Assembly: GCF_003008535.1 (NCBI RefSeq)
Contig: NZ_CP027666.1
Location: forward strand, 3,375,989-3,407,988
Origin: Ottowia oryzae
GTDB lineage: Bacteria; Pseudomonadota; Gammaproteobacteria; Burkholderiales; Burkholderiaceae_C
Reading direction: 5' to 3'
Length of the DNA stretch: 32,000 bases
Each line of letters begins with the position of its first letter. Position 1 is the stretch's first letter. Below the pieces are notes generated by a model that did no database searches, had not been told where the DNA came from, and saw only the letters and a program-made list of their open reading frames with translations. Made by a program: the position numbers and the translations under genes. Below are positions 2,915 through 29,660 of this stretch, in pieces.

Positions 2915-5900
2915 TGATGGCGAGCAGTGGGCCAGCCTCCACCGCATCGGCCATCGATTCGGCCAATGCTTCTGATTTGATAGCTGCCAGCGCTGGTGCA
3001 GCGGGCGCTGGCGACCCAAATGGCACTGAATCAACGCCGCCACCGCCACGCCGCCGCAGCGCCTGGCGCTGGGTGCTCTGGCTGCTGATCAGCCTGATCC
3101 TGCTGCTGGCGCTGGCGCTGGGCGGCCTGTGGGTGTGGGCGGGCAGCGAAGGGTCTCTGGCCACCGCGCTGCGCTGGGCGGGCGCGCAACAACCGCTGGT
3201 CACCGACGAAGTCACCGGCACGGTGCGCGGCGGCGGCAAGGTGCGGCGCCTGGTGTGGGACAAGGAAGGCTTGCGCGTCGAGGTGCAGAACGCCGAGCTG
3301 CTGTGGACGCCCGCTGCGCTGATGCACCGCACGCTGCAGATCGACCAGCTTTCGGCCAGCCGCATCGTGGTGGACGACCGGCGCCCCAAGGGCGAGGCAT
3401 CCAGCGGGCCGCCGAAGTCGCTGGCGCTGCCGCTGAAGATCGACGTGAAAGCCCTGCGCGCCGATGAGCTGCGCTGGGCCGGCCCACCGCCCTACTCGCT
3501 GCAAGACGTGGCGGGGCGCTTCAAGTACGACGGCCATCAGCACGCGCTGGTGCTGGACAGCGCGCAGATCGAGGGCGGCCGCTACAAGGCCCGCGCCAAC
3601 ATCACCGCGCGCGCCCCCATTCAGCTGGACGTGGCGCTGGCCGGCGCGCTCACGGCCCCGGTGCCCGGCGCGCAGGCGCCCGTGCCACTGACGCTGCAAG
3701 CCACGCTGAGCGGCCCACTGACCGACATGCAGGCGCGCGCCGACCTGCAAGCCGCGCCCGCGGCGCCGGGTGCGTCGGCCCCGGCGATTCCCGATCTGCC
3801 GGCGGCGCGCGGTGCGTCGGGCAAGGCCCCGCCTTCGTCAGCCGCCAGCAGCCCCGGCGCTGCCGCTTCCACGCCCGCCGCTGCCGCGCCATCGGCCGAC
3901 GCAGCCTCCGCACCGCAGGCCGGCGCATCCTCGGCCAACGCACGCGCAGACGCAAAACCCTCCGGCACCGCGGCCAGCGCGCCGCCGGGCGCCGCCCCCA
4001 GCGAAGTGCCCGAGGCGCATGCCACCGCCCGCATCACCCCCTGGCAAGCGCAGCCGCTGCCCGAAGCGCACGCCCGCGTGCGGGCGCTGGACGTGGGCGC
4101 CATCTGGGCGCAGGCGCCCCAAACGCATCTGACGGGCGAGCTGCACGTGCGCCCCATCGAAGGCGCATCGCCCGGCGCCACCTGCTGGGCGGTGGACGCC
4201 GACCTGACCAACCGTGGCGCCGGCCCCTGGGACCAGCACCGCCTGCCGGTCGAGCGGCTGCTGGCCGACCTGACCTGGCAGCACGGCGTGGCCACGGTGC
4301 GCTCACTCAAGGCCGACGTGGCCGGCGGCACACTGGAATCCACCGGCCGCTGGGCGCAAGCGCCTGCGCCCGCCAGCGCGGCTTCGGCCCCATCCGCCTC
4401 AGCCACACCACCTGCGACGGGCGCCAGCGCCCCGGCGGCCGCGTCCGGCTGGGCGCTGGATACGCGCGTTCAGGGCATCAACCCGGCCGCGCTGCACAAG
4501 CAGCTGGCGGCCTTCCCGATCGATGGCACGGCCAAAGTGCAGGGCGCGGCGGGCGGCATCGACTTTGACGTTCAGTTGCAGGCGCGAAGTACCCGTACCG
4601 CTGCGCCAGCGCGGCGCGGCGAATCGGCCGCGCAAGCGCTGGCCCGCGACCTGCGCGCCGTGCATCTGCGCGACGCCACCGCCACTGGCCGCTGGGCAGA
4701 TGGCGAACTGGCCTTGAACACGCTGCGTGTGCGCACCGACGAGGCCGAACTGGCCGGCAATGCCCACGTGCGCCCCGGCAGCGAGCCCGGCCCCGGCGGC
4801 CAGGCCGATCTGCGGCTGACCGCGCCTGGCACGCAAGCGCAGCTCAAAGGCGAGCTGCAGCCCAACACCGGCGCGGGCACGCTGCTGGTGCAGTTGCAAG
4901 ACGTCGCGCGCGCCCTGGCCTGGGCGCAAAAGCTGCCCGGCGCCAGCGACGCCTTGGCCGGCGCCAGCGCCCGGGGCAGCGCGCGCCTGGACGGCACCTG
5001 GCGTGGCGGCTGGCGCGACCCCAACATTCAGGCGCAGCTGACCGCACCCTCACTCAGCATGACGCCGCCGCGCAGCGCCAGCTCAGCCACGCCCATCCAA
5101 TTGCGCGCGCTGAATGCCAGCGTCAAAGGCCGTCTGGCGCAGGCTGACCTTGCTGTGCAAGGCGAGGTGACGCAGGGCGAGCGCCACCTGGACTTGCGGC
5201 TGGCTGCCAACGGCGGGCGCACCACGCCGCAGGCCACGCTGGCCGCCTCCAGCTGGCGCGCGCAGCTCACGCGCCTGCAAGCGGTGGTGCGCGACCCGGC
5301 CCTGGGCGAAGGCACCTGGCAGGCGGCCACCGAAGGCGCCGTGCCGCTCAGCTGGTCGCCCGCGCAAGGCGGCCAGTTCGAGGTGGGCGCGGGGGCGCTG
5401 GCCGTCACCTCGTCCGCTCCCGTTTCCCAGGCGCGCATCCAGTGGGGGCCGGCGCGCTGGCGCGGCGGCGAATTGACGACCACCGGGCGCATCACCGGCC
5501 TGCCGCTGGAATGGGCCGAGCGCGTGGCCGGCGCCCAGCTGCGCGCCGCGGGCGTCACCGGCGACGTGGTCTTCAACGGCGACTGGGACGCCACGCTGGG
5601 CCACGGCCTGCGCGTCAGCGCCAACCTCGCGCGCGCCAGGGGCGACATCGGCATCCTGACGACCGACCCGAGCACCGGCGTGCAGTCGCGCGTGGCCGCG
5701 GGCCTGCGCGACGCGCGGCTCAGCCTGACCAGCCAGGGCCAGGCGCTGCAGGCGCGCGTGGTGTGGGACAGCGAGCGCGCCGGCACCGTCACCGGCCAGC
5801 TGCGCACCGAACTGTCGGCCCAGCGCAGCGGCGAAGGCGCCACGCAGTGGTCTTGGCCTGAAGCGGCGCCGCTGCAGGGCGAGTTGCGGGCGCGCTTGCC

Positions 5901-7269
5901 GCAGATTTCGGCCTGGTCGGTACTGGCGCCGCCCGGCTGGCGGCTGCGCGGCTCGCTGGCGGCCGACCTGCGCATCAGCGGCACGCGCAGCGCGCCCCTG
6001 GTCAACGGCACGTTGAACGCCGACGACATGGCCATGCGCTCGGTGGTGGACGGCCTGCAGTTCGAGGGCGGGCGCCTGCGTGCGCGCCTGGACGGCACCC
6101 GCCTGCTGATCGACGAATTCGTGCTGCGCGGCGCGGGCAACCAGGACGGTGGCGGCCTGCTGCGCGCCACCGGGCAGGCCGGGCTGGTGGACGGGCGGCC
6201 GCAGGCGGTCCTGCGCGCCACGCTGGAACAGCTGCGCGCCAGCATCCGCGCCGACCGGCAGGTGACCGTGTCGGGCAACGTGACCGCGGCGCTGGACGGG
6301 CGCAGCGTGACCGCCGATGGCAAGCTGCGCGTGGACCGCGCCCGTATCGTGCTGCCCGACGAAAGCCGCCCCAGCCTGGGCGACGACGTGATCGTGCGGG
6401 GTGCGGGCGGCAAGGTGATGGCGGGCAAAGATGCGCCCGGCGCCGTGGCCAAGCCCACCAGCACCGCCGGCCAGCAAGAGGCCGCACGCGACGCGCGGGC
6501 CGCCAGCAGCCGCCAGCGCGCAGAAGCCAAGGCCAAGGAAAGCCGCGCCGAGCCGCTGACGGCCAAGGCCAACGTGCAGATCGACCTGGGCGACGACTTC
6601 CGCCTGTCCGGCATGGGCATCGACACGCGCCTGGCCGGGCAGCTGACCTTGGCCGCCGACGGCCCGCTGACGCAGCTGCCCACGCTGACCGGCCGCGTGC
6701 GCACGGTGGGTGGCACCTTCCGCGCGTACGGCCAGTTCCTCACCATTCAGCGCGGCTTCGTGGTCTTCAGCGGGCCCATCGACAACCCGGCGCTGGACAT
6801 CGTGGCGCTGCGGCCCAACTACACCAGCGACCAGCGCGTGGGCGTGCAGGTGATGGGCAGCGCGCTGCTGCCGCGCGTGCGCCTGTATTCCGAGCCCGCC
6901 CTGCCCGACAACCAGACCCTGGCCTGGCTGCTGCTGGGCCGCGCCGCCCCCGAATCGGGGGCCGAGGCGGCCATGCTGCAATCCGCCGCACTCGCCCTGC
7001 TGGGCGGGCGCGAAGGGCGCGGGCTGGCGGCCAACTTCGGCCTGGACGAGCTGAGCTTCTCCGGCGGCGAAGGCGGGTCGCTGCAAAGCGCCAGCGTCAC
7101 GCTGGGCAAGCGCCTGTCCGACAAGCTGTACGCGGCGTACGAACACAGCCTGGCGGGCGCCAGCGGCACGCTGATGATCTTCTACGAGCTGTCGCGCCGC
7201 TGGACACTGCGCGGCCAGGCGGGCGAAAACAGCGCGGTGGACTTGATCTTCCGGCTGAGCTTCGACTGA
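2914..7269 (+). CDS. tamB: translocation and assembly module protein TamB (DUF490 family)
   Basis: 1451 aa with a single N-terminal TM anchor (WRWVLWLLISLILLLALALGGLWVW) and a long beta-rich body. The conserved C-terminal DUF490-like region reads ...LSDKLYAAYEHSLAGASGTLMIFYELSRRWTLRGQAGENSAVDLIFRLSFD. It is coupled to tamA. Confidence 0.85.
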   Translation: MMASSGPASTASAIDSANASDLIAASAGAAGAGDPNGTESTPPPPRRRSAWRWVLWLLISLILLLALALGGLWVWAGSEGSLATALRWAGAQQPLVTDEVTGTVRGGGKVRRLVWDKEGLRVEVQNAELLWTPAALMHRTLQIDQLSASRIVVDDRRPKGEASSGPPKSLALPLKIDVKALRADELRWAGPPPYSLQDVAGRFKYDGHQHALVLDSAQIEGGRYKARANITARAPIQLDVALAGALTAPVPGAQAPVPLTLQATLSGPLTDMQARADLQAAPAAPGASAPAIPDLPAARGASGKAPPSSAASSPGAAASTPAAAAPSADAASAPQAGASSANARADAKPSGTAASAPPGAAPSEVPEAHATARITPWQAQPLPEAHARVRALDVGAIWAQAPQTHLTGELHVRPIEGASPGATCWAVDADLTNRGAGPWDQHRLPVERLLADLTWQHGVATVRSLKADVAGGTLESTGRWAQAPAPASAASAPSASATPPATGASAPAAASGWALDTRVQGINPAALHKQLAAFPIDGTAKVQGAAGGIDFDVQLQARSTRTAAPARRGESAAQALARDLRAVHLRDATATGRWADGELALNTLRVRTDEAELAGNAHVRPGSEPGPGGQADLRLTAPGTQAQLKGELQPNTGAGTLLVQLQDVARALAWAQKLPGASDALAGASARGSARLDGTWRGGWRDPNIQAQLTAPSLSMTPPRSASSATPIQLRALNASVKGRLAQADLAVQGEVTQGERHLDLRLAANGGRTTPQATLAASSWRAQLTRLQAVVRDPALGEGTWQAATEGAVPLSWSPAQGGQFEVGAGALAVTSSAPVSQARIQWGPARWRGGELTTTGRITGLPLEWAERVAGAQLRAAGVTGDVVFNGDWDATLGHGLRVSANLARARGDIGILTTDPSTGVQSRVAAGLRDARLSLTSQGQALQARVVWDSERAGTVTGQLRTELSAQRSGEGATQWSWPEAAPLQGELRARLPQISAWSVLAPPGWRLRGSLAADLRISGTRSAPLVNGTLNADDMAMRSVVDGLQFEGGRLRARLDGTRLLIDEFVLRGAGNQDGGGLLRATGQAGLVDGRPQAVLRATLEQLRASIRADRQVTVSGNVTAALDGRSVTADGKLRVDRARIVLPDESRPSLGDDVIVRGAGGKVMAGKDAPGAVAKPTSTAGQQEAARDARAASSRQRAEAKAKESRAEPLTAKANVQIDLGDDFRLSGMGIDTRLAGQLTLAADGPLTQLPTLTGRVRTVGGTFRAYGQFLTIQRGFVVFSGPIDNPALDIVALRPNYTSDQRVGVQVMGSALLPRVRLYSEPALPDNQTLAWLLLGRAAPESGAEAAMLQSAALALLGGREGRGLAANFGLDELSFSGGEGGSLQSASVTLGKRLSDKLYAAYEHSLAGASGTLMIFYELSRRWTLRGQAGENSAVDLIFRLSFD
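2975..3034 (+). repeat. REP-like repeat, copy B, embedded in the 5' coding region of tamB
   Basis: TTTGATAGCTGCCAGCGCTGGTGCAGCGGGCGCTGGCGAC...AAATGG is nearly identical over the core to copy D (16225). Confidence 0.7.
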
Positions 7270-7372: not shown

Positions 7373-7447
7373 TGGTGTCCCCACCAGGAATCGAACCTGG
7401 ATCTGATTCTTAGGAGGAACCTGTTCTATCCATTGAACTACAGGGAC
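7373..7447 (-). tRNA. tRNA-Arg (anticodon CCT)
   Basis: Manual cloverleaf: GTCCCTG TA GTTC AATGGATA GAAC A GGTTC CTCCTAA GAATC AGAT CCAGG TTCGATT CCTGG TGGGGAC A CCA. 75 nt with encoded CCA. Confidence 0.9.
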
Positions 7448-7529
7448 GCGAGCCCGCAACTATAGCAGCGGGCCGCGCAATTGCGCCCCTCGCAAGACAC
7501 CCGCATGTCCAGCGCCGCCCTGCCTAAAG

Positions 7530-9217: not shown

Positions 9218-9292
9218 CGCCGCTGGCGGGCGCGCTCTGAAGTTGTGACGCTATGGCTTGGCACCGCCCGGCAGTCGCGCCCTGGTTTTGCT

Positions 9293-9352
9293 ATTGATTG
9301 AGTAGCTGCCAGCGCCCGTCACACCTGCGCCAGACGCTGATTTTCCTTAAGG
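9293..9352 (+). repeat. REP-like repeat, copy C
   Basis: ATTGATTGAGTAGCTGCCAGCGCCCGTCACACCTGCGCCAGACGCTGATTTTCCTTAAGG. It overlaps the last codons of the convergent response-regulator gene. Confidence 0.65.
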
Positions 9353-13914: not shown

Positions 13915-14862
13915 ATGGTCATCGGCCGCTTTGCCCCTTCGCCCACCGGCGCGCTGCATGCCGGGTCGCTGGTGGCAGCGCTGGCCAGCTGGCTGGACGT
14001 GCGTGCGCAAGGCGGCCGCTGGCTGGTGCGCATCGAAGACGTGGACACCCCGCGCTGCCTGCCCGGCGCCGACCAGCGCATCCTGCAGCAGCTGGCCGAT
14101 TGCGGCCTGGTGCCCGACGAAGCGCCCACCTGGCAATCCCAACGCGGCCATCTCTACGAAGCTGCCCTGGCGCGGCTGGTGGATGAGGGCCTGGCCTACC
14201 CCTGCGCGTGCTCACGCAAAGACATCGCTCTGGCCCAGGCGGCGCTGGGCCGCAGCGCCACGCGCGGCGTGGAACTGCCCTACCCCGGCACCTGCCGGCC
14301 CGAGCGCGGCGGCCTGCATGGCCGACCCGCCCGCGCGTGGCGCCTGCACACTGGGCGTTTGATACCCAATCAGCCCCCAGCGCAGGATGGGCCAGCGCCG
14401 GCAGCTACGCATTTCATAGCAAATTCAGCGCTGACCATCACCTGGAACGACCGCCGACTGGGCCCGCAGCGCCAGGATGTCGCCACCGCGGTGGGCGACT
14501 TCGTGCTGCGCCGCGCAGACGGGCTGTGGGCGTACCAGCTCGCCGTGGTGGTGGACGACGCCGCGCAAGGCATAACGCACGTCGTGCGCGGTGAAGACCT
14601 GGCCGACAACACGCCGCGGCAGATCCTGCTGCAACGCGCGCTGGGCCTGCCCACGCCGCTGTACCTTCACACCCCGCTGGTGCTGGCCGCCGATGGCGAA
14701 AAGCTCAGCAAGCAAAACGGCGCCGAAGCCGTGGACACCCGCACACCGCTGCAGGCCCTGAACGCCGCCGCCGCGCCACTGGGCCTGCCCCCCGCGCCCA
14801 CCGGCGACGTGCGCGGCGCACTGGCTTTCTGGACCGACGCGTGGCGCACGCGCTTGTGCTGA
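13915..14862 (+). CDS. gluQ: tRNA glutamyl-Q(34) synthetase GluQRS
   Basis: [44 protein letters not shown] (HIGH-like motif) and ...[35 protein letters not shown]...KLSKQ. It has the size of a truncated GluRS paralogue with no anticodon-binding domain. Confidence 0.9.
14357..14410 (-). repeat. REP-like repeat, copy K, embedded in frame within gluQ (reverse orientation)
   Basis: The plus strand reads ...CAGCCCCCAGCGCAGGATGGGCCAGCGCCGGCAGCTAC..., closely parallel to copy I (27505-27560: CAGCCTCTAGCGCAGGCTGCACCAGCGCCGGCAGCTAT). Confidence 0.65.
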
Positions 14863-16089: not shown

Positions 16090-16224
16090 GAATCGGTGGC
16101 AAGGGCCAGGGCGCGGCAAGGAGCATTGGGCCCCAGCCCGGGCCGCCGGCTGTGGCGCAGATTGTAGAAGTGCTGTGCGCGCCGCGCGGGCGTGCCTGCC
16201 GGTTGGCACATCCGATCAACTATG

Positions 16225-16280
16225 TTTTTCATAGCTGCCAGCGCTGGTGCAGCGGGCGCCAGAGGCCAATTTTGCTTAAA
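16225..16280 (+). repeat. REP-like repeat, copy D
   Basis: TTTTTCATAGCTGCCAGCGCTGGTGCAGCGGGCGCCAGAGGCCAATTTTGCTTAAA, in the divergent tcdA/valS intergenic region. Confidence 0.75.
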
Positions 16281-16426: not shown

Positions 16427-19400
16427 ATGTCCGATCAGCCCGCGCAACCCGGCCTTGAAAGCCTGTCCAAATCGTTCGAACCGACCGCCATCGAGGCCTT
16501 CTGGGGCCCCGAGTGGGAACGCCGGGGCTACGGGCGCGCGGGCGTACGCGGCACAGGCCAGCCCGACGCGGCCGCGGCGGCGCGGGGCGATAACTTCTGC
16601 ATCCAGCTGCCGCCCCCGAACGTGACGGGCACGCTGCACATGGGCCATGCGTTCAACCAGACGATCATGGACACGCTCACGCGCTACCACCGCATGCGCG
16701 GCTTCAACACGCTGTGGGTGCCCGGCACCGACCATGCGGGCATCGCCACGCAGATCGTGGTGGAGCGCCAGCTGCAAGAGCAGCAAGGCCAAAGCCGCTA
16801 CGACCTGGGCCGCAAGAACTTCGTGGCGCGCGTGTGGGAATGGAAGCAGCAGTCGGGCGACACCATCACTCGCCAGATGCGCCGAATGGGCGACAGCGTG
16901 GACTGGGGCCATGAGTACTTCACCATGGACGACAACCTGTCCAAAGTGGTGACCGACACCTTCGTGCGCCTGTACGAACAGGGCCTGATCTACCGCGGCA
17001 AGCGCCTGGTCAACTGGGACCCGGCGCTGAAATCCGCCGTGAGCGACCTGGAAGTGGTCAGCGAAGAAGAAGACGGCTTTCTGTGGCACATCGCCTACCC
17101 GCTGGTCGACCCGGACGGCAGCCTGAAAGCCGCCGGCGCGCCCGCCAGCCTGGTGGTGGCCACCACCCGGCCCGAGACCATGCTGGGCGACGTCGCCGTG
17201 ATGGTGCACCCCGAAGACGAGCGCTACCAGGCGCTGATCGGCAAGCACGTCACGCTGCCGCTGGTGGGCCGCGAGATTCCGGTGATTGCCGACGACTATG
17301 TGGACCGCGAGTTCGGCACCGGCGTGGTCAAGGTCACGCCCGCGCACGACGCCAACGACTACGCCGTGGGCCAGCGGCACAAGCTGCCCATGATCGGCGT
17401 GCTGAACCTAGACGCCACCATCAACGACCAGTCGCCCGAGAAATACCGCGGCATGGACCGCTTCGTGGCGCGCAAGGCCATCGTGGCCGACCTGGATGCG
17501 CAAGGCGCGCTGGTCGACACCAAGAAACACAAGCTGATGGTGCCGCGCTGCGAGCGCACCGGCCAGATCATCGAGCCGATGCTGACCGACCAGTGGTTTG
17601 TGGCCATGACCAAGGTCAGCCCGCAAGACCCGACGGGCAAGAGCATTGCGCAAAAGGCGATCGACGCGGTGGCCAGCGGGCAGGTGCGCTTCGTGCCCGA
17701 AAACTGGGTCAACACCTACAACCAGTGGATGAACAACATCCAGGACTGGACCATCAGCCGCCAGCTGTGGTGGGGCCACCAAATCCCCGCCTGGTACGGC
17801 GAAGATGGTTCAATTTTTGTAGCAAACAACGAAGAAGAGGCCAGCGCCAAGGCCCAAAAAGCTGGCTATACCGGCACCCTGACGCGCGACCCCGATGTGC
17901 TGGACACCTGGTACTCATCGGCGCTGGTGCCCTTCTCTTCGCTGGGCTGGCCGCAGCAAGAGACCCCCACGCTCCCCGCTGCGCGTGGTTCGCTGCCCCC
18001 CGAGGGGGCTGCTGCGCCTTCGGGCGGCCGTGCGGCGCAGCTCTCAGACATGGCGCTGTACCTGCCCTCATCGGTGCTGGTGACAGGGCACGACATCATC
18101 TTCTTCTGGGTGGCCCGGATGATCATGATGACCACGCACTTCACCGGCAAGGTGCCCTTCCGCGACGTGTACATCCACGGCCTGGTGCTGGACGCGCACG
18201 GCAAGAAGATGAGCAAGAGCGAGGGCAACGTGCTGGACCCGGTCGATCTGATCGACGGCATCGCGCTCGACCCGCTGCTGGCCAAGCGCACCACGGGCCT
18301 GCGCCGCCCCGAGACGGCGCCCAAGGTGCGCGAGAACACCAAGAAGGAATTCCCTGAAGGCATTCCCGGCTACGGCGCCGACGCGCTGCGCTTCACCTTC
18401 GCCGCCATGGCCACGCTGGGGCGCACCATCAACTTCGACAGCAAGCGCTGCGAGGGCTACCGCAACTTCTGCAACAAGCTCTGGAACGCCAGCCGATTCG
18501 TGCTGATGAATTGCGAAGGTCATGATTGCGGAAATAACGCCCCCACGCTCCCCGCTTCGCGTGGTTCGCTGCCCCCCGAGGGGGCTGGCCCCGCCTTGGG
18601 GCGGCCCGGCACCGGGGCCGAAGGCGATACCGCCCCTGAACGCTCTGCCGCCGACCGCTGGATCGTCAGCCGCCTGCAGAAGGCCGAGGCCGCCGTGGCC
18701 AAGGCTTTCGAGGACTACCGGCTGGACCTGGCAGCCAACGCCATCTACGACTTTGTGTGGAACGAGTTCTGCGACTGGTACCTTGAAATCGCCAAGGTGC
18801 AGATCCAGACCGGCTCGCCCGAGCAGCAACGCGCCACGCGCCGCACCCTGGTGCGCGTGCTGGAAGCCATTCTGCGGCTGGCGCACCCCATCATCCCGTT
18901 CGTGACCGAGGCGCTGTGGCAAGCCGTGGCGCCCGTGGCGGGCAAGTCGGGCGCGTCGATCATGGTGGCGGCCTACCCGCAATCGCAGGCGGCCAACATC
19001 GATGAGGCGGCCGAGGCCGAAATCGCCCGCCTGAAGGCGCTGGTGGACGCTTGCCGCACCTTGCGCGGCGAGATGAACGTGTCGCCCGCGCAGCGCCTGC
19101 CGCTGTACGCCACCGGCGACGAAGCCTTCCTGCGCACCATGGGCCCCACGCTGCAAGCGCTGGCCAAACTGAGCGAGGTGCGCCTGTTTGCCGACGAAGC
19201 GCAATGGGCCGAGGCCGCTGGCGCCGCGCCCGTGGCCGTGGTGGGCGATGCGCGCCTCGCGCTGTTCATGGAAATCGACGTGGCGGCCGAGCAGCAGCGC
19301 CTGGACAAGGAGATCAAGCGCCTGGAAGGCGAGATCGCCAAGGCCAACGCCAAGCTGGGCAACGAAGCCTTCGTGGCCAAGGCGCCGCCGCAGGTGATCG

Positions 19401-19477
19401 AGCAAGAGAAAAAGCGTGTGGCCGACTTTGGCGATGCGCTGGAGAAGTTGAAGGCGCAGCGCCGGCGCCTGGGCTGA
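16427..19477 (+). CDS. valS: valine--tRNA ligase
   Basis: 1016 aa with [15 protein letters not shown] (HIGH), KMSKSEGN (KMSKS) and a C-terminal coiled coil ...[36 protein letters not shown]. It is collinear with E. coli ValRS as I remember it, apart from two inserts. Confidence 0.97.
17964..18030 (+). repeat. GC-rich palindromic element, copy 1, in frame inside valS
   Basis: CCCCCACGCTCCCCGCTGCGCGTGGTTCGCTGCCCCCCGAGGGGGCTG is identical at 47/48 positions to 18540-18587. It contains the inverted repeats CCACGC/GCGTGG and GCCCCC/GGGGGC. Confidence 0.8.
18540..18606 (+). repeat. GC-rich palindromic element, copy 2, in frame inside valS
   Basis: CCCCCACGCTCCCCGCTTCGCGTGGTTCGCTGCCCCCCGAGGGGGCTG, in the same codon phase as copy 1. 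Weaker similarity continues for ~18 more nt (..CGCCTT(C/G)GGGCGGCC). Confidence 0.8.
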
Positions 19478-20626: not shown

Positions 20627-21514
20627 ATGCCTAAGCCCTACCAGGTCGATGTCGCCGTTTTTCCCGTCGCAGGGCTCGGCACGCGCTTTCTACCGGCCAC
20701 CAAGGCCAGCCCCAAAGAGATGCTGCCGGTGGTGGACAAGCCACTCATCCAATACGCGGTGGAAGAGGCCTACGCGGCCGGCGTGCGGCACATGGTGTTT
20801 GTCACAGGGCGCAGCAAGCGCGCCATCGAAGACCACTTCGACACCGCCTACGAGCTGGAAAGCGAGCTGGAAGCCGCTGGCAAATCCGCCCTGCTGAACA
20901 CCGTTCAGGCCGTGCAGCCTGCCGACATGGTGTGCACCTACGTGCGCCAGCCGCGCTCATTGGGGTTGGGGCACGCCGTGCTGTGCGCCGCGCACATCGT
21001 GGGCCAGCACCCGTTTGCGGTGCTGCTGGCGGATGACCTGATGGTCGGCCCGGCCAATGGCCTGCCGGTGCTGGCGCAAATGACCCGCGCTTACGAATCG
21101 CTGGGCCGTTCGGTACTGGCCGTGCAAGAGGTGCCGACCGACCAGGTCAGCCGCTACGGGATCGTGGCCGGCTCGCCTGCGGGCGAGCGGCTGATGAGCA
21201 TCGAGCGCATCGTCGAAAAACCCTCGCCTGCCGAAGCGCCTTCGCGCATGGGTGTTGCCGGGCGCTACATCCTCACCCCGCGCATCTTCGACGAACTGCG
21301 CGACCAGCCGCCCGGCGCTGGCGGCGAGATTCAGCTGACCGACGCCATCGCGCGCCTGATGGCCAAAGAGCGCGTTTACGCTTACCAGTACGAGGGCAAG
21401 CGCTACGATTGCGGTAGCAAAGAGGGCTTTCTGCAAGCCACGGTGGAACTGGCCCTGCAACACCCGCAGATGGGTGCGTCGTTCTGCGAATACCTGAAGT
21501 CCCTGGCACTCTGA
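20627..21514 (+). CDS. galU: UTP--glucose-1-phosphate uridylyltransferase
   Basis: [39 protein letters not shown]...[10 protein letters not shown]...LLADDL is the classic GalU signature. 295 aa. Confidence 0.95.
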
Positions 21515-21570
21515 TATTCATAGCTGCCAGCGCTTTTCCATCAAGCGCCAGAGGCCGATTTAACAAAAAA
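21514..21570 (+). repeat. REP-like repeat, copy E
   Basis: ATATTCATAGCTGCCAGCGCTTTTCCATCAAGCGCCAGAGGCCGATTTAACAAAAAA, immediately after the galU stop. Confidence 0.75.
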
Positions 21571-24244: not shown

Positions 24245-24300
24245 ATTTGATAGCTGCCGACGCTTTCCAGACAAGGGATACAGCCTTAATTTGCTTGAAG
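24245..24300 (+). repeat. REP-like repeat, copy F (degenerate)
   Basis: ATTTGATAGCTGCCGACGCTTTCCAGACAAGGGATACAGCCTTAATTTGCTTGAAG, in the 151-bp gap between the PP2C and WYL genes. Confidence 0.6.
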
Positions 24301-24381: not shown

Positions 24382-25383
24382 ATGCCCCAACGCCCCGACA
24401 CCCTCGAAAGCGTCCTGCTCGCCGTGGAACTGCTGCGCCGCATCCCGCGCGGGCGCAAGATCACCGCCGCCGAACTGCACCGGCAACTCAAGGACGCGGG
24501 CATGGAGCGTACCGAGCGCACCATCCAGCGCCAGTTGGAAATGCTCTCGCGCCATTTCGAGATTGAGCGCGACGAGCGCAGCAAGCCCTACGGCTACCGC
24601 TGGCTGGAGCGCGCCCAACACCTGGCCGTGCCCCACCTCACGCCGCACGAATCGCTGCTGCTGCAACTGGCCGAGGAGCACCTGAAACACCTGCTGCCCA
24701 CGCGGCTGATGCAGTCCATGGACGGCTTCTTTGCCCAGGCCCGCCGCAATCTGGGCGACGATAGCCAGGGCCACAACGTGCGCCTGGCCCGTGAATGGCC
24801 GCGCAAGGTGCGCGTGGTTGCCACCAGCCAGCCGCTGCTGCCGCCCTCCATCGCCCCCGGCGTGCTGGAAGCCGTGAGCGACGCGCTGTACGGCAACCGC
24901 TGGCTGGAGCTGGACTACCAGAACGCCGCAGGCAAACGAAAGCCGGTCAAGGTCATGCCCCTGGGCCTGGCCCAGCAAGGCCCTCGCCTGTACCTGGTGT
25001 GCCGGTATGAGGGTTTTGGCAACGAACGCAGCCTGGCGCTGCACCGCGTCCGCAAGGCGCAGGCGTCCACGCTGGCTTTTGAGCGGCCTGCGGATTTCGA
25101 CTTGCAGAAGTACGACGACGACGGACGCTTTGGGTTTGGCGAAGGGGAGCGGGTGCAGCTCACGTTCTGCATTGAAAACGAGGCTGGCTTTCACCTGCGT
25201 GAAACGCCTTTGTCCCAGGACCAGCAGGTGCGCGATTGCGGAGATGGGTGGATGGAAGTCACCGCCACGGTCGTGGACAGCGCCATGCTGCAATGGTGGC
25301 TGCGGGGGTTTGGAGAGTCCGTGCGCGAGGTCAACAGCAAGCCAGCGCAGCCACTGCGCACCACGACGCTCCTAAACAAATAG
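24382..25383 (+). CDS. WYL domain-containing transcriptional regulator (HTH-WYL-WCX architecture, BrxR/CapW/PafBC-like)
   Basis: N-terminal wHTH LLAVELLRRIPRGRKITAAELHRQLKDAGMERTERTIQRQLEML. Central WYL-type segment NRWLELDYQNAAGKRKPVKVMPLGLAQQGPRLYLVCRYEGF...LALHRV. A C-terminal extension follows. Confidence 0.8.
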   Translation: MPQRPDTLESVLLAVELLRRIPRGRKITAAELHRQLKDAGMERTERTIQRQLEMLSRHFEIERDERSKPYGYRWLERAQHLAVPHLTPHESLLLQLAEEHLKHLLPTRLMQSMDGFFAQARRNLGDDSQGHNVRLAREWPRKVRVVATSQPLLPPSIAPGVLEAVSDALYGNRWLELDYQNAAGKRKPVKVMPLGLAQQGPRLYLVCRYEGFGNERSLALHRVRKAQASTLAFERPADFDLQKYDDDGRFGFGEGERVQLTFCIENEAGFHLRETPLSQDQQVRDCGDGWMEVTATVVDSAMLQWWLRGFGESVREVNSKPAQPLRTTTLLNK

Positions 25384-25430
25384 CTGCCAGCGCTTGCTAA
25401 ATAAGCACCAGCAGCCAGTTTGGCTTCAAC
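25378..25430 (+). repeat. REP-like repeat, copy G
   Basis: AAATAGCTGCCAGCGCTTGCTAAATAAGCACCAGCAGCCAGTTTGGCTTCAACC. The TAG of the core is the stop codon of the WYL gene. Confidence 0.7.
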
Positions 25431-26222: not shown

Positions 26223-26228
26223 GCTTTT

Positions 26229-26288
26229 ATTTTGATAGCTGCTTGCGCCCTACTGGCAAACGCCAGCGGCCGATTTGGATTGAATCAA
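26229..26288 (+). repeat. REP-like repeat, copy H
   Basis: ATTTTGATAGCTGCTTGCGCCCTACTGGCAAACGCCAGCGGCCGATTTGGATTGAATCAA, between the NUDIX start and the cysM stop, oriented against transcription. Confidence 0.65.
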
Positions 26289-27504: not shown

Positions 27505-27560
27505 ATTTCAAAAAAAAACAGCCTCTAGCGCAGGCTGCACCAGCGCCGGCAGCTATTCTT
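27505..27560 (-). repeat. REP-like repeat, copy I (reverse orientation), terminator-like
   Basis: The minus strand reads AAAGAATAGCTGCCGGCGCTGGTGCAGCCTGCGCTAGAGGCTGTTTTTTTTTGAAAT. The stem CAGCCT/AGGCTG is followed by T9. The core TAG is the stop codon of the SDR gene. Confidence 0.75.
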
Positions 27561-28485
27561 TAGGTAGCAACCCAGTCGCCGGCGTGGGGTAGCGCAAGCG
27601 CAGGCGCGGCTCACGCTTGAGCCGTGTGTTGTCCAGCCGCCGCGACTCCTGCATGAACGACAAGCGCTCGGGCGACAGGTGGCTGGGCGCCTCTGCCAGG
27701 CCGATGCGCGGCGGGCGCGGCACGCCGTACAGGTCGGCAGCCATGTCGAAGTAGTCGCCCATCTTCAGCTGGCTGTCGTCGTTGGCGTTGATCACGCGCT
27801 GCGGCCCGGCGCGCCACAGTGCCAGCACGCAGGCGCGCGCCAGGTCATCGGCATGGATGTGGTTGGTGTAGACGTCATCGTCGGCGTTCAGCACCGGCGT
27901 GCCCGCCAGCAGGCGCGCGCGGGGCGTGCCGTTGGGCCGGTCGGGCGCGTAGATACCCGGAATGCGCAGCACGGCGGTGCGCACGGCCGCGCGCTGGCCA
28001 AAGTCGCGCACCAGGCGCTCGGCCGCCACCCGCCGGGCCGACCGCGCCGTGCTGGGGCGCACGGTGGCCGTTTCGTCGATGAAGGCGCCCGCGCGATCAC
28101 CGTACACCCCGCTGGTGGACGCGTACACCAACGCCTGCGGCGGCGTGCGCCTCGCCAGCGCCCGCAGCAGCGCCGCCGTGCGCGGGTCGCCCGTGCCGCT
28201 GCCGGGCGGCGGGGCCAGGTGCAGCACGTGCGTGGCCACGCCCGCCAGACGGCGCAGGCTGGCGGGGCTGTCCAGATCGCCGCGCAGCATGAAGGCCGCG
28301 GGCCCGTTACCCAACGCCCCGCCACTGCCAGTGGATGCGGCACTCCGAGTCAGGCCCAGCACCCGCACGCGCGGCGCCAGCAGGCGCGCGACGCGCCCAC
28401 CCACGTCGCCGTAGCCGACGATCAAGACGCGCGCACGGCGAAAGCGGGCGGGCAGCGCGCCGAGGGGGCTGAGGTTTGAGGGCAA
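27553..28485 (-). CDS. NAD-dependent epimerase/dehydratase (SDR) family protein
   Basis: N-terminal Rossmann motif RVLIVGYGDVGGRVARLL. 310 aa. ...YASTSGVYGD... is typical of extended SDRs. Confidence 0.7.
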   Translation of the reverse strand: MPSNLSPLGALPARFRRARVLIVGYGDVGGRVARLLAPRVRVLGLTRSAASTGSGGALGNGPAAFMLRGDLDSPASLRRLAGVATHVLHLAPPPGSGTGDPRTAALLRALARRTPPQALVYASTSGVYGDRAGAFIDETATVRPSTARSARRVAAERLVRDFGQRAAVRTAVLRIPGIYAPDRPNGTPRARLLAGTPVLNADDDVYTNHIHADDLARACVLALWRAGPQRVINANDDSQLKMGDYFDMAADLYGVPRPPRIGLAEAPSHLSPERLSFMQESRRLDNTRLKREPRLRLRYPTPATGLLPKE

Positions 28486-29579: not shown

Positions 29580-29600
29580 TCGGCCAGCGCCATTCGCTTC

Positions 29601-29660
29601 TTTTTTGATAGCTGCCAGCGCCCTCTGCACCTGCGCTGGAGCCTGTTTTTTTGATTGATA
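29601..29660 (+). repeat. REP-like repeat, copy J, terminator-like
   Basis: TTTTTTGATAGCTGCCAGCGCCCTCTGCACCTGCGCTGGAGCCTGTTTTTTTGATTGATAAG. Stem CCAGCGC/GCGCTGG, then a T7 run. Confidence 0.75.

Follow-up and report, generated by a model that had tools for sequence, protein, structure and literature searches.

Two in-frame segments of valS in Ottowia oryzae are copies of the Beta-proteobacterial repeat element

Introduction

Why does the gene for an essential aminoacyl-tRNA synthetase contain the same short segment twice, and what kind of sequence is it? The question is raised by valS, encoding valine-tRNA ligase (ValRS), in a stretch of 32,000 nucleotides from Ottowia oryzae (contig NZ_CP027666.1, positions 3,375,989 to 3,407,988; the whole stretch is referred to as the window). 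Here, valS is an open reading frame (ORF) of 1016 aa on the plus strand (window positions 16427 to 19477). An earlier note on this DNA had likened its repeated segment to in-frame palindromic elements of Rickettsia. We show that, judged by sequence, both segments are copies of the Beta-proteobacterial repeat element (BRE), and we put at roughly 85% the probability of the favored explanation, in which BRE copies lie in frame in valS and add residues to tolerant loops.

The element was named by Hot et al. (2011, BMC Genomics 12:207; PMC3110155) as a GC-rich repeat of roughly 90 bp (75 to 91 bp), with 8 to 29 copies in Bordetella, Polaromonas, Delftia, Acidovorax, Rhodoferax, and Azoarcus. Copies were described as mostly intergenic and often tandem, with some wholly inside coding sequences; the repeat was termed a variable-number tandem repeat, and in Bordetella pertussis a BRE overlaps the small RNA BprJ1/J2 (PMC3110155). 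No structure, frame analysis, or mechanism was given in that paper, and Ottowia is outside its sample (PMC3110155). BRE has barely been studied since 2011, and a literature search with the core sequence and the encoded peptide strings returned no matches. The family is already named and its occurrence in coding sequences already noted; the valS case is a new, unusually tidy example. What this work adds for BRE is a hairpin model backed by covariation, two preferred reading frames, bracketing of copies by start and stop codons, and allele polymorphism at three sites in valS.

Results

The closest proteins to the window ValRS are Ottowia ValRS, its orthologues contain the Pfam domains tRNA-synt_1, Anticodon_1, and Val_tRNA-synt_C, and it matches Thermus thermophilus ValRS (1GAX) at E = 3.7e-192. 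A repeat search confirmed the 48-nt segment with a single mismatch that the earlier note had seen twice in valS, at 17964 to 18011 (copy A, site 1) and 18540 to 18587 (copy B, site 2). The two are identical at 47/48 positions (98%) and 576 nt (3 x 192) apart. When the 32-kb window was searched for the 48-mer with up to three mismatches, exactly these two sites were found, and two matches were obtained in 0 of 100 shuffles. Similarity does continue beyond the 48-mer, but for about 40 nt rather than the supposed 18 or so, through CGCCTTSGGGCGGCC and a covarying stem and across a 1-nt indel (an extra G in copy B). A common codon phase had also been proposed, and it holds for the first 48 nt (the 5' two-thirds) only, since the indel shifts the 3' parts into different frames; CGCCTTSGGGCGGCC is translated as APSGGRA in copy A and as ALGRPGT in copy B. 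Conservation of the 3' part despite this difference in frame indicates that the repeat exists at the level of DNA and is not a protein motif.

Alignment of copies A and B with two BREs of B. pertussis (List S1 of PMC3110155) gave 80.5 to 85.2% identity over 80 to 87 aligned nt, with 80 to 81% for copy A and 83 to 85% for copy B. In reverse complement, the List S1 elements read AAAAAGACCCCCACGCT...GCTGCCCCCCGAGGGGGC...GCCTTGGGCGGCCCGCGGCC, and a 5' box, the GCTGCCCCCCGAGGGGGC core, and the CCTTGGGCGGCCC loop are common to the published BREs and the valS copies. Hot et al. required more than 70% identity to the B. pertussis consensus over most of the length, a value that the valS copies exceed. 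Their length of 87 nt lies within the range of 75 to 91 bp, their G+C content (0.79 and 0.83 for the covariance-model matches given below) is above the genome average, and the host is a betaproteobacterium. Like published BREs, copies of the family are dispersed, mostly intergenic, and often tandem, with arrays in the loci L024, L062, L089, and L090. As no defining difference was found between BRE and the valS copies, the latter are members of this family.

Copy A comprises 87 nt (17959 to 18045, plus strand) that replace 6 nt of the empty allele, a net gain of 81 nt; copy B, also 87 nt (18533 to 18619, plus strand), replaces CTG of the empty allele, a net gain of 84 nt. On the window, the covariance model of the family matched only these two, at 17962 to 18047 (plus strand, 87.9 bits, E = 1e-18) and 18538 to 18624 (plus strand, 75.5 bits, E = 8e-16), the next best score being 12.8 bits. 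In copy A, a purine-rich, C-poor 5' tail, GCAAGAGA, and the conserved 5' box CCCCCACGCT together span 17955 to 17973 (plus strand). Three hairpins follow on the same strand. Hairpin 1 (17975 to 17988), CCCGC-TGC-GCG(t)GG with a bulged T, consists of five pairs, all with two-sided changes among 71 copies. Hairpin 2 (17995 to 18009), GCCCCC-CGA-GGGGGC, is the invariant core and contains the family seed 19-mer CGCTGCCCCCCGAGGGGGC. Hairpin 3 (18011 to 18041) is formed by an outer stem, GCTGCGCC/GGCGCAGC, around the loop-helix TTCGGGCGGCCGTGC, has 11 pairs with two-sided changes, and carries in its inner helix the compensatory C66/G75 variant. The plus-strand hairpins of copy B are CCCGC-TTC-GCG(t)GG in the same register (18551 to 18564), GCCCCC-CGA-GGGGGC (18571 to 18585), and a third with the stem GGCCCCG/CGGGGCC around CCTTGGGGCGGCCCGGCA (18587 to 18619).

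Two inverted repeats had been pointed out before. One, GCCCCC/GGGGGC, is indeed a hairpin, whereas the other, CCACGC/GCGTGG, is better read as CCCGC paired with GCG-t-GG, a stem with a bulged T that covaries family-wide; hairpin 3 is additional to both. Folding energies of single copies were no better than those of shuffles (z about 0), which is uninformative because the sequence is so GC-rich, the useful test being covariation across copies. ARAGORN and Rfam detected no tRNA or known RNA at either valS site, Rfam covariance models gave no relevant match at E <= 10 within 17800 to 18800, and at gathering score the whole window contained three tRNAs only.

Copies beyond valS turned out to be widespread, on plasmids and on one-genome-per-species contigs, and mostly intergenic, and the segment is neither unique to valS nor conserved as protein. 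With the invariant 19-mer CGCTGCCCCCCGAGGGGGC as a search seed, at least 120 genomic stretches were obtained from the one-genome-per-species contigs; among the matches listed, almost all belong to Comamonadaceae, other Burkholderiales, and Rhodocyclales, more than 130 further copies lie nearly all in Burkholderiales and Rhodocyclales, and just 1 of 137 extracted matches (L121) lacks the rest of the element. The covariance model recognized 161 copies in the 760 kb of loci retrieved. A blastn search of plasmids with copy A returned matches of 74 to 77 nt in Variovorax, Acidovorax, Rhodoferax, Azoarcus, Paraburkholderia, and Burkholderia. The Acidovorax copy lies between a HupU-family gene and a gene for a sigma-54-dependent regulator, the Azoarcus copy between two transketolase subunit genes, and the Rhodoferax copy inside a Fic gene on the opposite strand.

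The Ottowia locus L024 contains 12 BRE copies in 8 kb (694 to 781, 4178 to 4265, 4592 to 4931, 5910 to 6486, and 7411 to 7495), including four tandem units of 84 to 88 nt. One of them is in frame near the DnaE C terminus, and another abuts the dnaE start codon on the opposite strand. Matches were also seen in bins labeled as Synechococcus (L022), Desulfobulbus (L036), and Kapabacteria (L067) metagenome-assembled genomes, which are most likely misbinned contigs.

From 5' to 3', members of the family comprise a C-poor, A-rich tail of about 10 nt (often with ATG), the box GCCCCCACGCT, and hairpins 1, 2, and 3. A survey of 129 copies showed the 10 nt preceding the box to be A-rich and C-depleted, with G immediately before the box in 81%. 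Family-wide, hairpin 1 has five pairs and a bulged T, hairpin 2 reads GCCCCC-CGA-GGGGGC, and hairpin 3 has a variable stem of 7 to 10 bp enclosing CTTGGGGCGGCCCGGCG, which itself forms GGG-GCGG-CCC. Among 71 distinct copies, 92.7% of cells are paired, compared with 79.8% in shuffles, and two-sided changes affect 16 pairs in 256 cells. The covariation score of 0.341, against 0.124 in shuffles, was reached by none of 500 shuffles, and slid registers scored 0.06 to 0.12. The family has three hairpins, two of which, hairpins 1 and 3, show strong covariation; hairpin 2 is uninformative in this respect, because its invariance follows from its use as the search seed.

Variants with shorter 5' modules and an alternative 3' module occur mainly in Polaromonas. 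A short subfamily has TGAnATGA at both ends; this motif was considered as a target-site duplication and rejected, since it is also present at unit junctions within tandem arrays and therefore appears to be part of the element. Derivation of stem 3 from the target site, suggested by the resemblance of GGCGCAGC to the upstream GGCCGCAGC, was likewise rejected, as no such resemblance exists in other copies and different genomes share stem types.

Aligned with 1GAX, both inserts are pure additions: the first separates residues 473 and 474 (GWPEET/EDLKAFYP), and the second falls near residue 605, immediately ahead of the ADRF/ADRW helix in the part that binds the anticodon. These positions agree with the loop placement proposed earlier, and ValRS orthologues vary in length at both. 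Each insert is a multiple of three bases without a stop codon, and the inserts are presumably translated into 27 to 28 extra Pro/Gly/Ala-rich residues in length-variable ValRS loops. Together, they supply 55 (27 + 28) of the 67 residues by which the protein exceeds the 949-aa form, the commonest among relatives.

Close relatives lacking one or both inserts, for which the earlier note had proposed looking, were found. The ValRS cluster at 90% identity holds two records of 1016 aa, seven of 988 to 989 aa (one named Ottowia oryzae), and one of 961 aa, corresponding to both inserts, the second insert only, and neither, respectively; eight aligned members covering all three lengths are 98 to 99% identical in protein sequence to the 1016-aa ValRS. 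Copy A is absent from L005 (valS 97.3% identical) and L131, and copy B from L131 (96.4% identical), L006, L007, and L128. At site 1, the empty junction reads CAGCA/GACCGA/AGACATG and the filled one CAGCA/AGAGACC...CTCTC/AGACATG; at site 2, GGA/CTG/GAAGGC is replaced by GGA/AATAAC...GGGGCC/GAAGGC. The metagenome scaffold L132, an independent assembly from ENA, has both inserts.

Among 40 Ottowia-clade orthologues, site 2 is occupied in many and site 1 in few. In a neighbor-joining tree, site-2 carriers are scattered across the whole clade among noncarriers, which implies either an old insertion with many losses or frequent exchange of alleles. A third site in valS, after the equivalent of residue 396 (following FVAMNK), is occupied in the orthologues P0018 and P0020 (in the valS of the latter, the insertion lies at about 2160 to 2250 of L128), and P0021 and P0114 have short BRE remnants at site 1.

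As for other genes, 101 of 128 assessable copies (about 80%) are not spanned by an ORF, and 27 (about 20%) are spanned by an ORF with coding-type periodicity of G+C at third codon positions on both sides, one of them (L081) by an ORF on the wrong strand. Pfam domains flank the insert in UvrA, biotin carboxylase, GlmS, GcvT, RadA, phosphoglucose isomerase (PGI), threonine synthase, CobQ, and a topoisomerase; a FemAB-like protein, with Pfam matches on both sides, contains 2.5 tandem copies. Further hosts, judged by eye, resemble PutA, the alpha subunit of a formate dehydrogenase, a helicase of the UvrD type, and a GlnD/GlnE-type enzyme. With L081 dropped, genic copies use the three frames 13/1/0 times in sense and 11/1/0 times in antisense orientation (chi-square p = 8e-8), the main frames being APTLxxxxxxLPPEGA in sense (13) and APSGGSxxREAxSVGA in antisense (11). 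All six frames contain few stop codons, and the two in use stand out by having the lowest arginine content, which fits selection on the encoded peptide.

Formate-dehydrogenase-type operons of several genera (L019, L039, L045, and L066) carry BRE copies of different subtypes near homologous genes. The element lies just before the large-subunit gene in L039 and L045 (intergenic) and in frame, in antisense orientation, inside it in L019. Such a pattern would result from conservation of an old copy or from a site that is used recurrently.

A second, unrelated intergenic repeat was observed in the window (core ATAGCTGCCAGCGC, 7 to 11 nt, GCGCTGG/GCGCCAG), forming a hairpin flanked by A/T-rich runs. 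It lies on the plus strand at 302 to 355, 2968 to 3029, 9290 to 9351, 16219 to 16280, 21508 to 21569, 24250 to 24299, 25380 to 25429, 26223 to 26284, and 29596 to 29649, and on the minus strand at 14368 to 14422 and 27507 to 27570. With up to two mismatches, the window contains 13 matches versus 0.69 expected, and no Rfam family matches this repeat.

Discussion

In the explanation that we favor, BRE copies would arise by an insertion or copy-in process. Homologous recombination and near-precise deletion would account for their spread among strains and for their loss. Selection would retain genic copies only if the frame is kept, the loop is tolerant, and the frame used is one of the two whose peptides are least basic. 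A shared subfamily consensus, or conversion of the 5' half of copy A by copy B, might explain why the first 48 nt are nearly identical in the two valS copies.

Several results weigh against this explanation. Terminal inverted repeats were not seen in a comparison, by eye only, of the A-rich tail with the stem-3 arm, and relative to alleles of 96 to 97% identity neither valS site has a target-site duplication, 3 to 6 nt being replaced instead. No recurrent transposase-like family was present among the ORFs of about 120 neighborhoods of 8 kb; by inspection, all-versus-all clustering of 2,496 ORFs grouped common paralogues only (ABC ATPases, short-chain dehydrogenases, Bug/TctC-type proteins, and LysR). 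Nor was there a transposase between the paired copies of L024 and L105, where DnaE, unassigned ORFs overlapping the BRE-filled stretch, and nuoL/M/N-type genes were found. AlphaFold modeling of ValRS across 30 close orthologues gave a mean predicted local distance difference test score of 48.9, unusable for surface mapping. In addition, the 3' 62 nt at site 1 are identical in three lineages whose valS sequences are only 82 to 86% identical, with a chance of about 1e-5 per pair. At site 2, stem 3 of orthologous copies reads GGCCCC/GGGGCC in the window, GACCCC/GGGGTC in L130, and GATCCC/GGGATC in L129. These changes are compensatory and keep perfect pairing within an ORF, the covarying residues being G..A, D..V, and D..I. 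Finally, copies between codirectional genes are biased in orientation, with 32 sense versus 8 antisense (binomial p = 0.0002). Compensatory stems, the identical site-1 tract, and the 32:8 bias fit a dead selfish insert poorly.

The near-identity of the two valS copies could be a product of conversion within the gene, with copy A already present at site 1 and its 5' half overwritten by copy B. The 5' 48 nt of copy A match copy B, including the CGTGGT (Arg-Gly) state that at site 2 is found in the window lineage only. Over the 3' 62 nt, copy A is identical to what L007 and L128 have at site 1, with about six differences from these two copies in the 5' half; it therefore looks mosaic, consistent with conversion by copy B. 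The tract in question, including the junction CTCTCAGAC, lies at 17990 to 18049 of the window, 5005 to 5090 of L007, and about 2565 to 2690 of L128, and its identity suggests that a very short piece was exchanged recently or that constraint is unusually strong. However, the 48-mer of copy B also occurs in uvrA of Xenophilus azovorans (L028) and the first 47 nt of copy A in L090, and a shared subfamily consensus may be an equally simple reading of the identity. We hold conversion to be possible, with the odds against it; it concerns the history of copy A, not the identity of the element. L129 and the distant Comamonadaceae locus L040 likewise have copies at site 1, with a quite different stem 3, suggesting that the spot was used more than once or that its copy was replaced in place.

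A different proposal is that BRE is mainly a functional structured module of RNA or single-stranded DNA under selection, and that the valS hairpins act in the mRNA, in processing, stability, pausing, or coupling. It draws on strong covariation and loops conserved across orders, on the compensatory changes in orthologous site-2 copies, and on the sense bias between codirectional genes. A conserved U-G wobble is found at one pair in 56 of 71 copies, and the 84 G-T versus 20 A-C cells among non-Watson-Crick cells point to one strand; this asymmetry is weak (28 versus 20) once the single conserved U-G pair is left out. An ATG lies within 15 nt upstream of 72 of 120 copies, and about 35 copies form mini-ORFs of 25 to 45 codons that end at the 3' end of the element, their TGA often overlapping the next ATG. 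As the frames of these mini-ORFs differ between copies, conservation concerns the arrangement and not the peptide. The B. pertussis small RNA BprJ1/J2 contains a BRE (PMC3110155), and bprJ levels are reported to change in an RNase III mutant. On the other hand, genic copies are about equally oriented in the subset scored (8 sense and 10 antisense; Fisher p = 0.013 for the contrast with the intergenic 32:8), near-identical strains do without either valS copy, and conversion between copies or stem arms could keep the pairing without selection. We consider a primarily RNA-level role unlikely. In L105, short-form BREs (at 1460 and 3042) occupy the gaps flanking a Proton_antipo_M gene, beside a nuoL-like gene, and the copy at 3042 forms a 37-codon mini-ORF.

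More broadly, BRE might be a selected structural module whose hairpins stay paired even in an essential ORF, whose intergenic copies point in the direction of transcription and lie between a start and a stop codon so that translation runs through them, and which is gained and lost near-precisely at recurrent sites. This reading can draw on the three different, fully complementary stems of orthologous site-2 copies in valS and on a site-1 copy that is identical between lineages 15% diverged. We know of no element family that combines these features. If true, this would mean an undescribed mechanism of copy-in and copy-out or conversion, possibly acting on single-stranded hairpins, together with a role at the RNA level; we assign the idea a low probability.

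Two further accounts are refuted. An old duplicated ValRS protein motif with a function of its own would agree with near-identical peptides over 16 residues in the same frame, but the segment is missing from most orthologues, including ones of 98 to 99% identity, its conserved 3' part is read in two frames, and the same DNA is mostly intergenic and lies antisense in other proteins. An assembly or chimera artifact, for which just the general difficulty of assembling GC-rich hairpin repeats speaks, is ruled out: the 1016-aa allele, found on a 3.9-Mb NCBI contig, is also carried by the independent scaffold L132, and many assemblies (ENA, NCBI, JGI, and Logan) have copies at site 1 and site 2.

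In the explanation by tolerated in-frame BRE copies, near-identical Ottowia strains with zero, one, or two inserts of 27 to 28 residues in an essential synthetase, and relatives using a third site, amount to a natural experiment that shows the insertion tolerance of ValRS loops and provides matched alleles for tests of neutrality. For the annotation of Burkholderiales, the practical consequence is that BREs lengthen proteins and make unrelated ones look alike through spurious matches of the type "PTLP...LPPEGA" or "APSGGS".

Compared with known repeat systems, BRE shares with REP/REPIN elements and MITEs that it is short, GC-rich, hairpin-forming, dispersed, sometimes clustered, and nonautonomous. 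The likeness to REP or MITE sequences drawn in the earlier note does not hold in the strict sense. BRE is longer, with three hairpins over about 85 nt, where REP is a single imperfect palindrome of 20 to 40 bp. No RAYT or other transposase was found in the sampled neighborhoods (about 120 loci of 8 kb), the terminal inverted repeats (by eye) and target-site duplication of a MITE are missing, and the element belongs to no Rfam family. Supply et al. in 1997 are said to have described MIRUs between operon genes, carrying small ORFs that overlap the neighboring genes at their start and stop codons. Intergenic BREs show such an overlap. MIRUs are repeats of 40 to 100 bp, often tandem and variable in number (PMC3184786); they differ from BRE in sequence and hosts and are not described as hairpin-rich, and the frames of BRE mini-ORFs vary.

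The Rickettsia palindromic elements (Ogata et al. 2000, via PMC10969869), as summarized in that source, belong to Alphaproteobacteria with AT-rich, reduced genomes and measure about 150 bp, in all of which they differ from BRE. Common to both is a short palindromic repeat that lies in frame in unrelated housekeeping genes and adds a peptide without destroying the protein (PMC10969869). For BRE, with about 20% of copies genic and in either orientation, the resemblance is one of behavior only. To this extent, the dispersal of the family and the polymorphic valS orthologues support the comparison made in the earlier note, that of an in-frame palindromic repeat tolerated in a synthetase as Rickettsia palindromic elements are.

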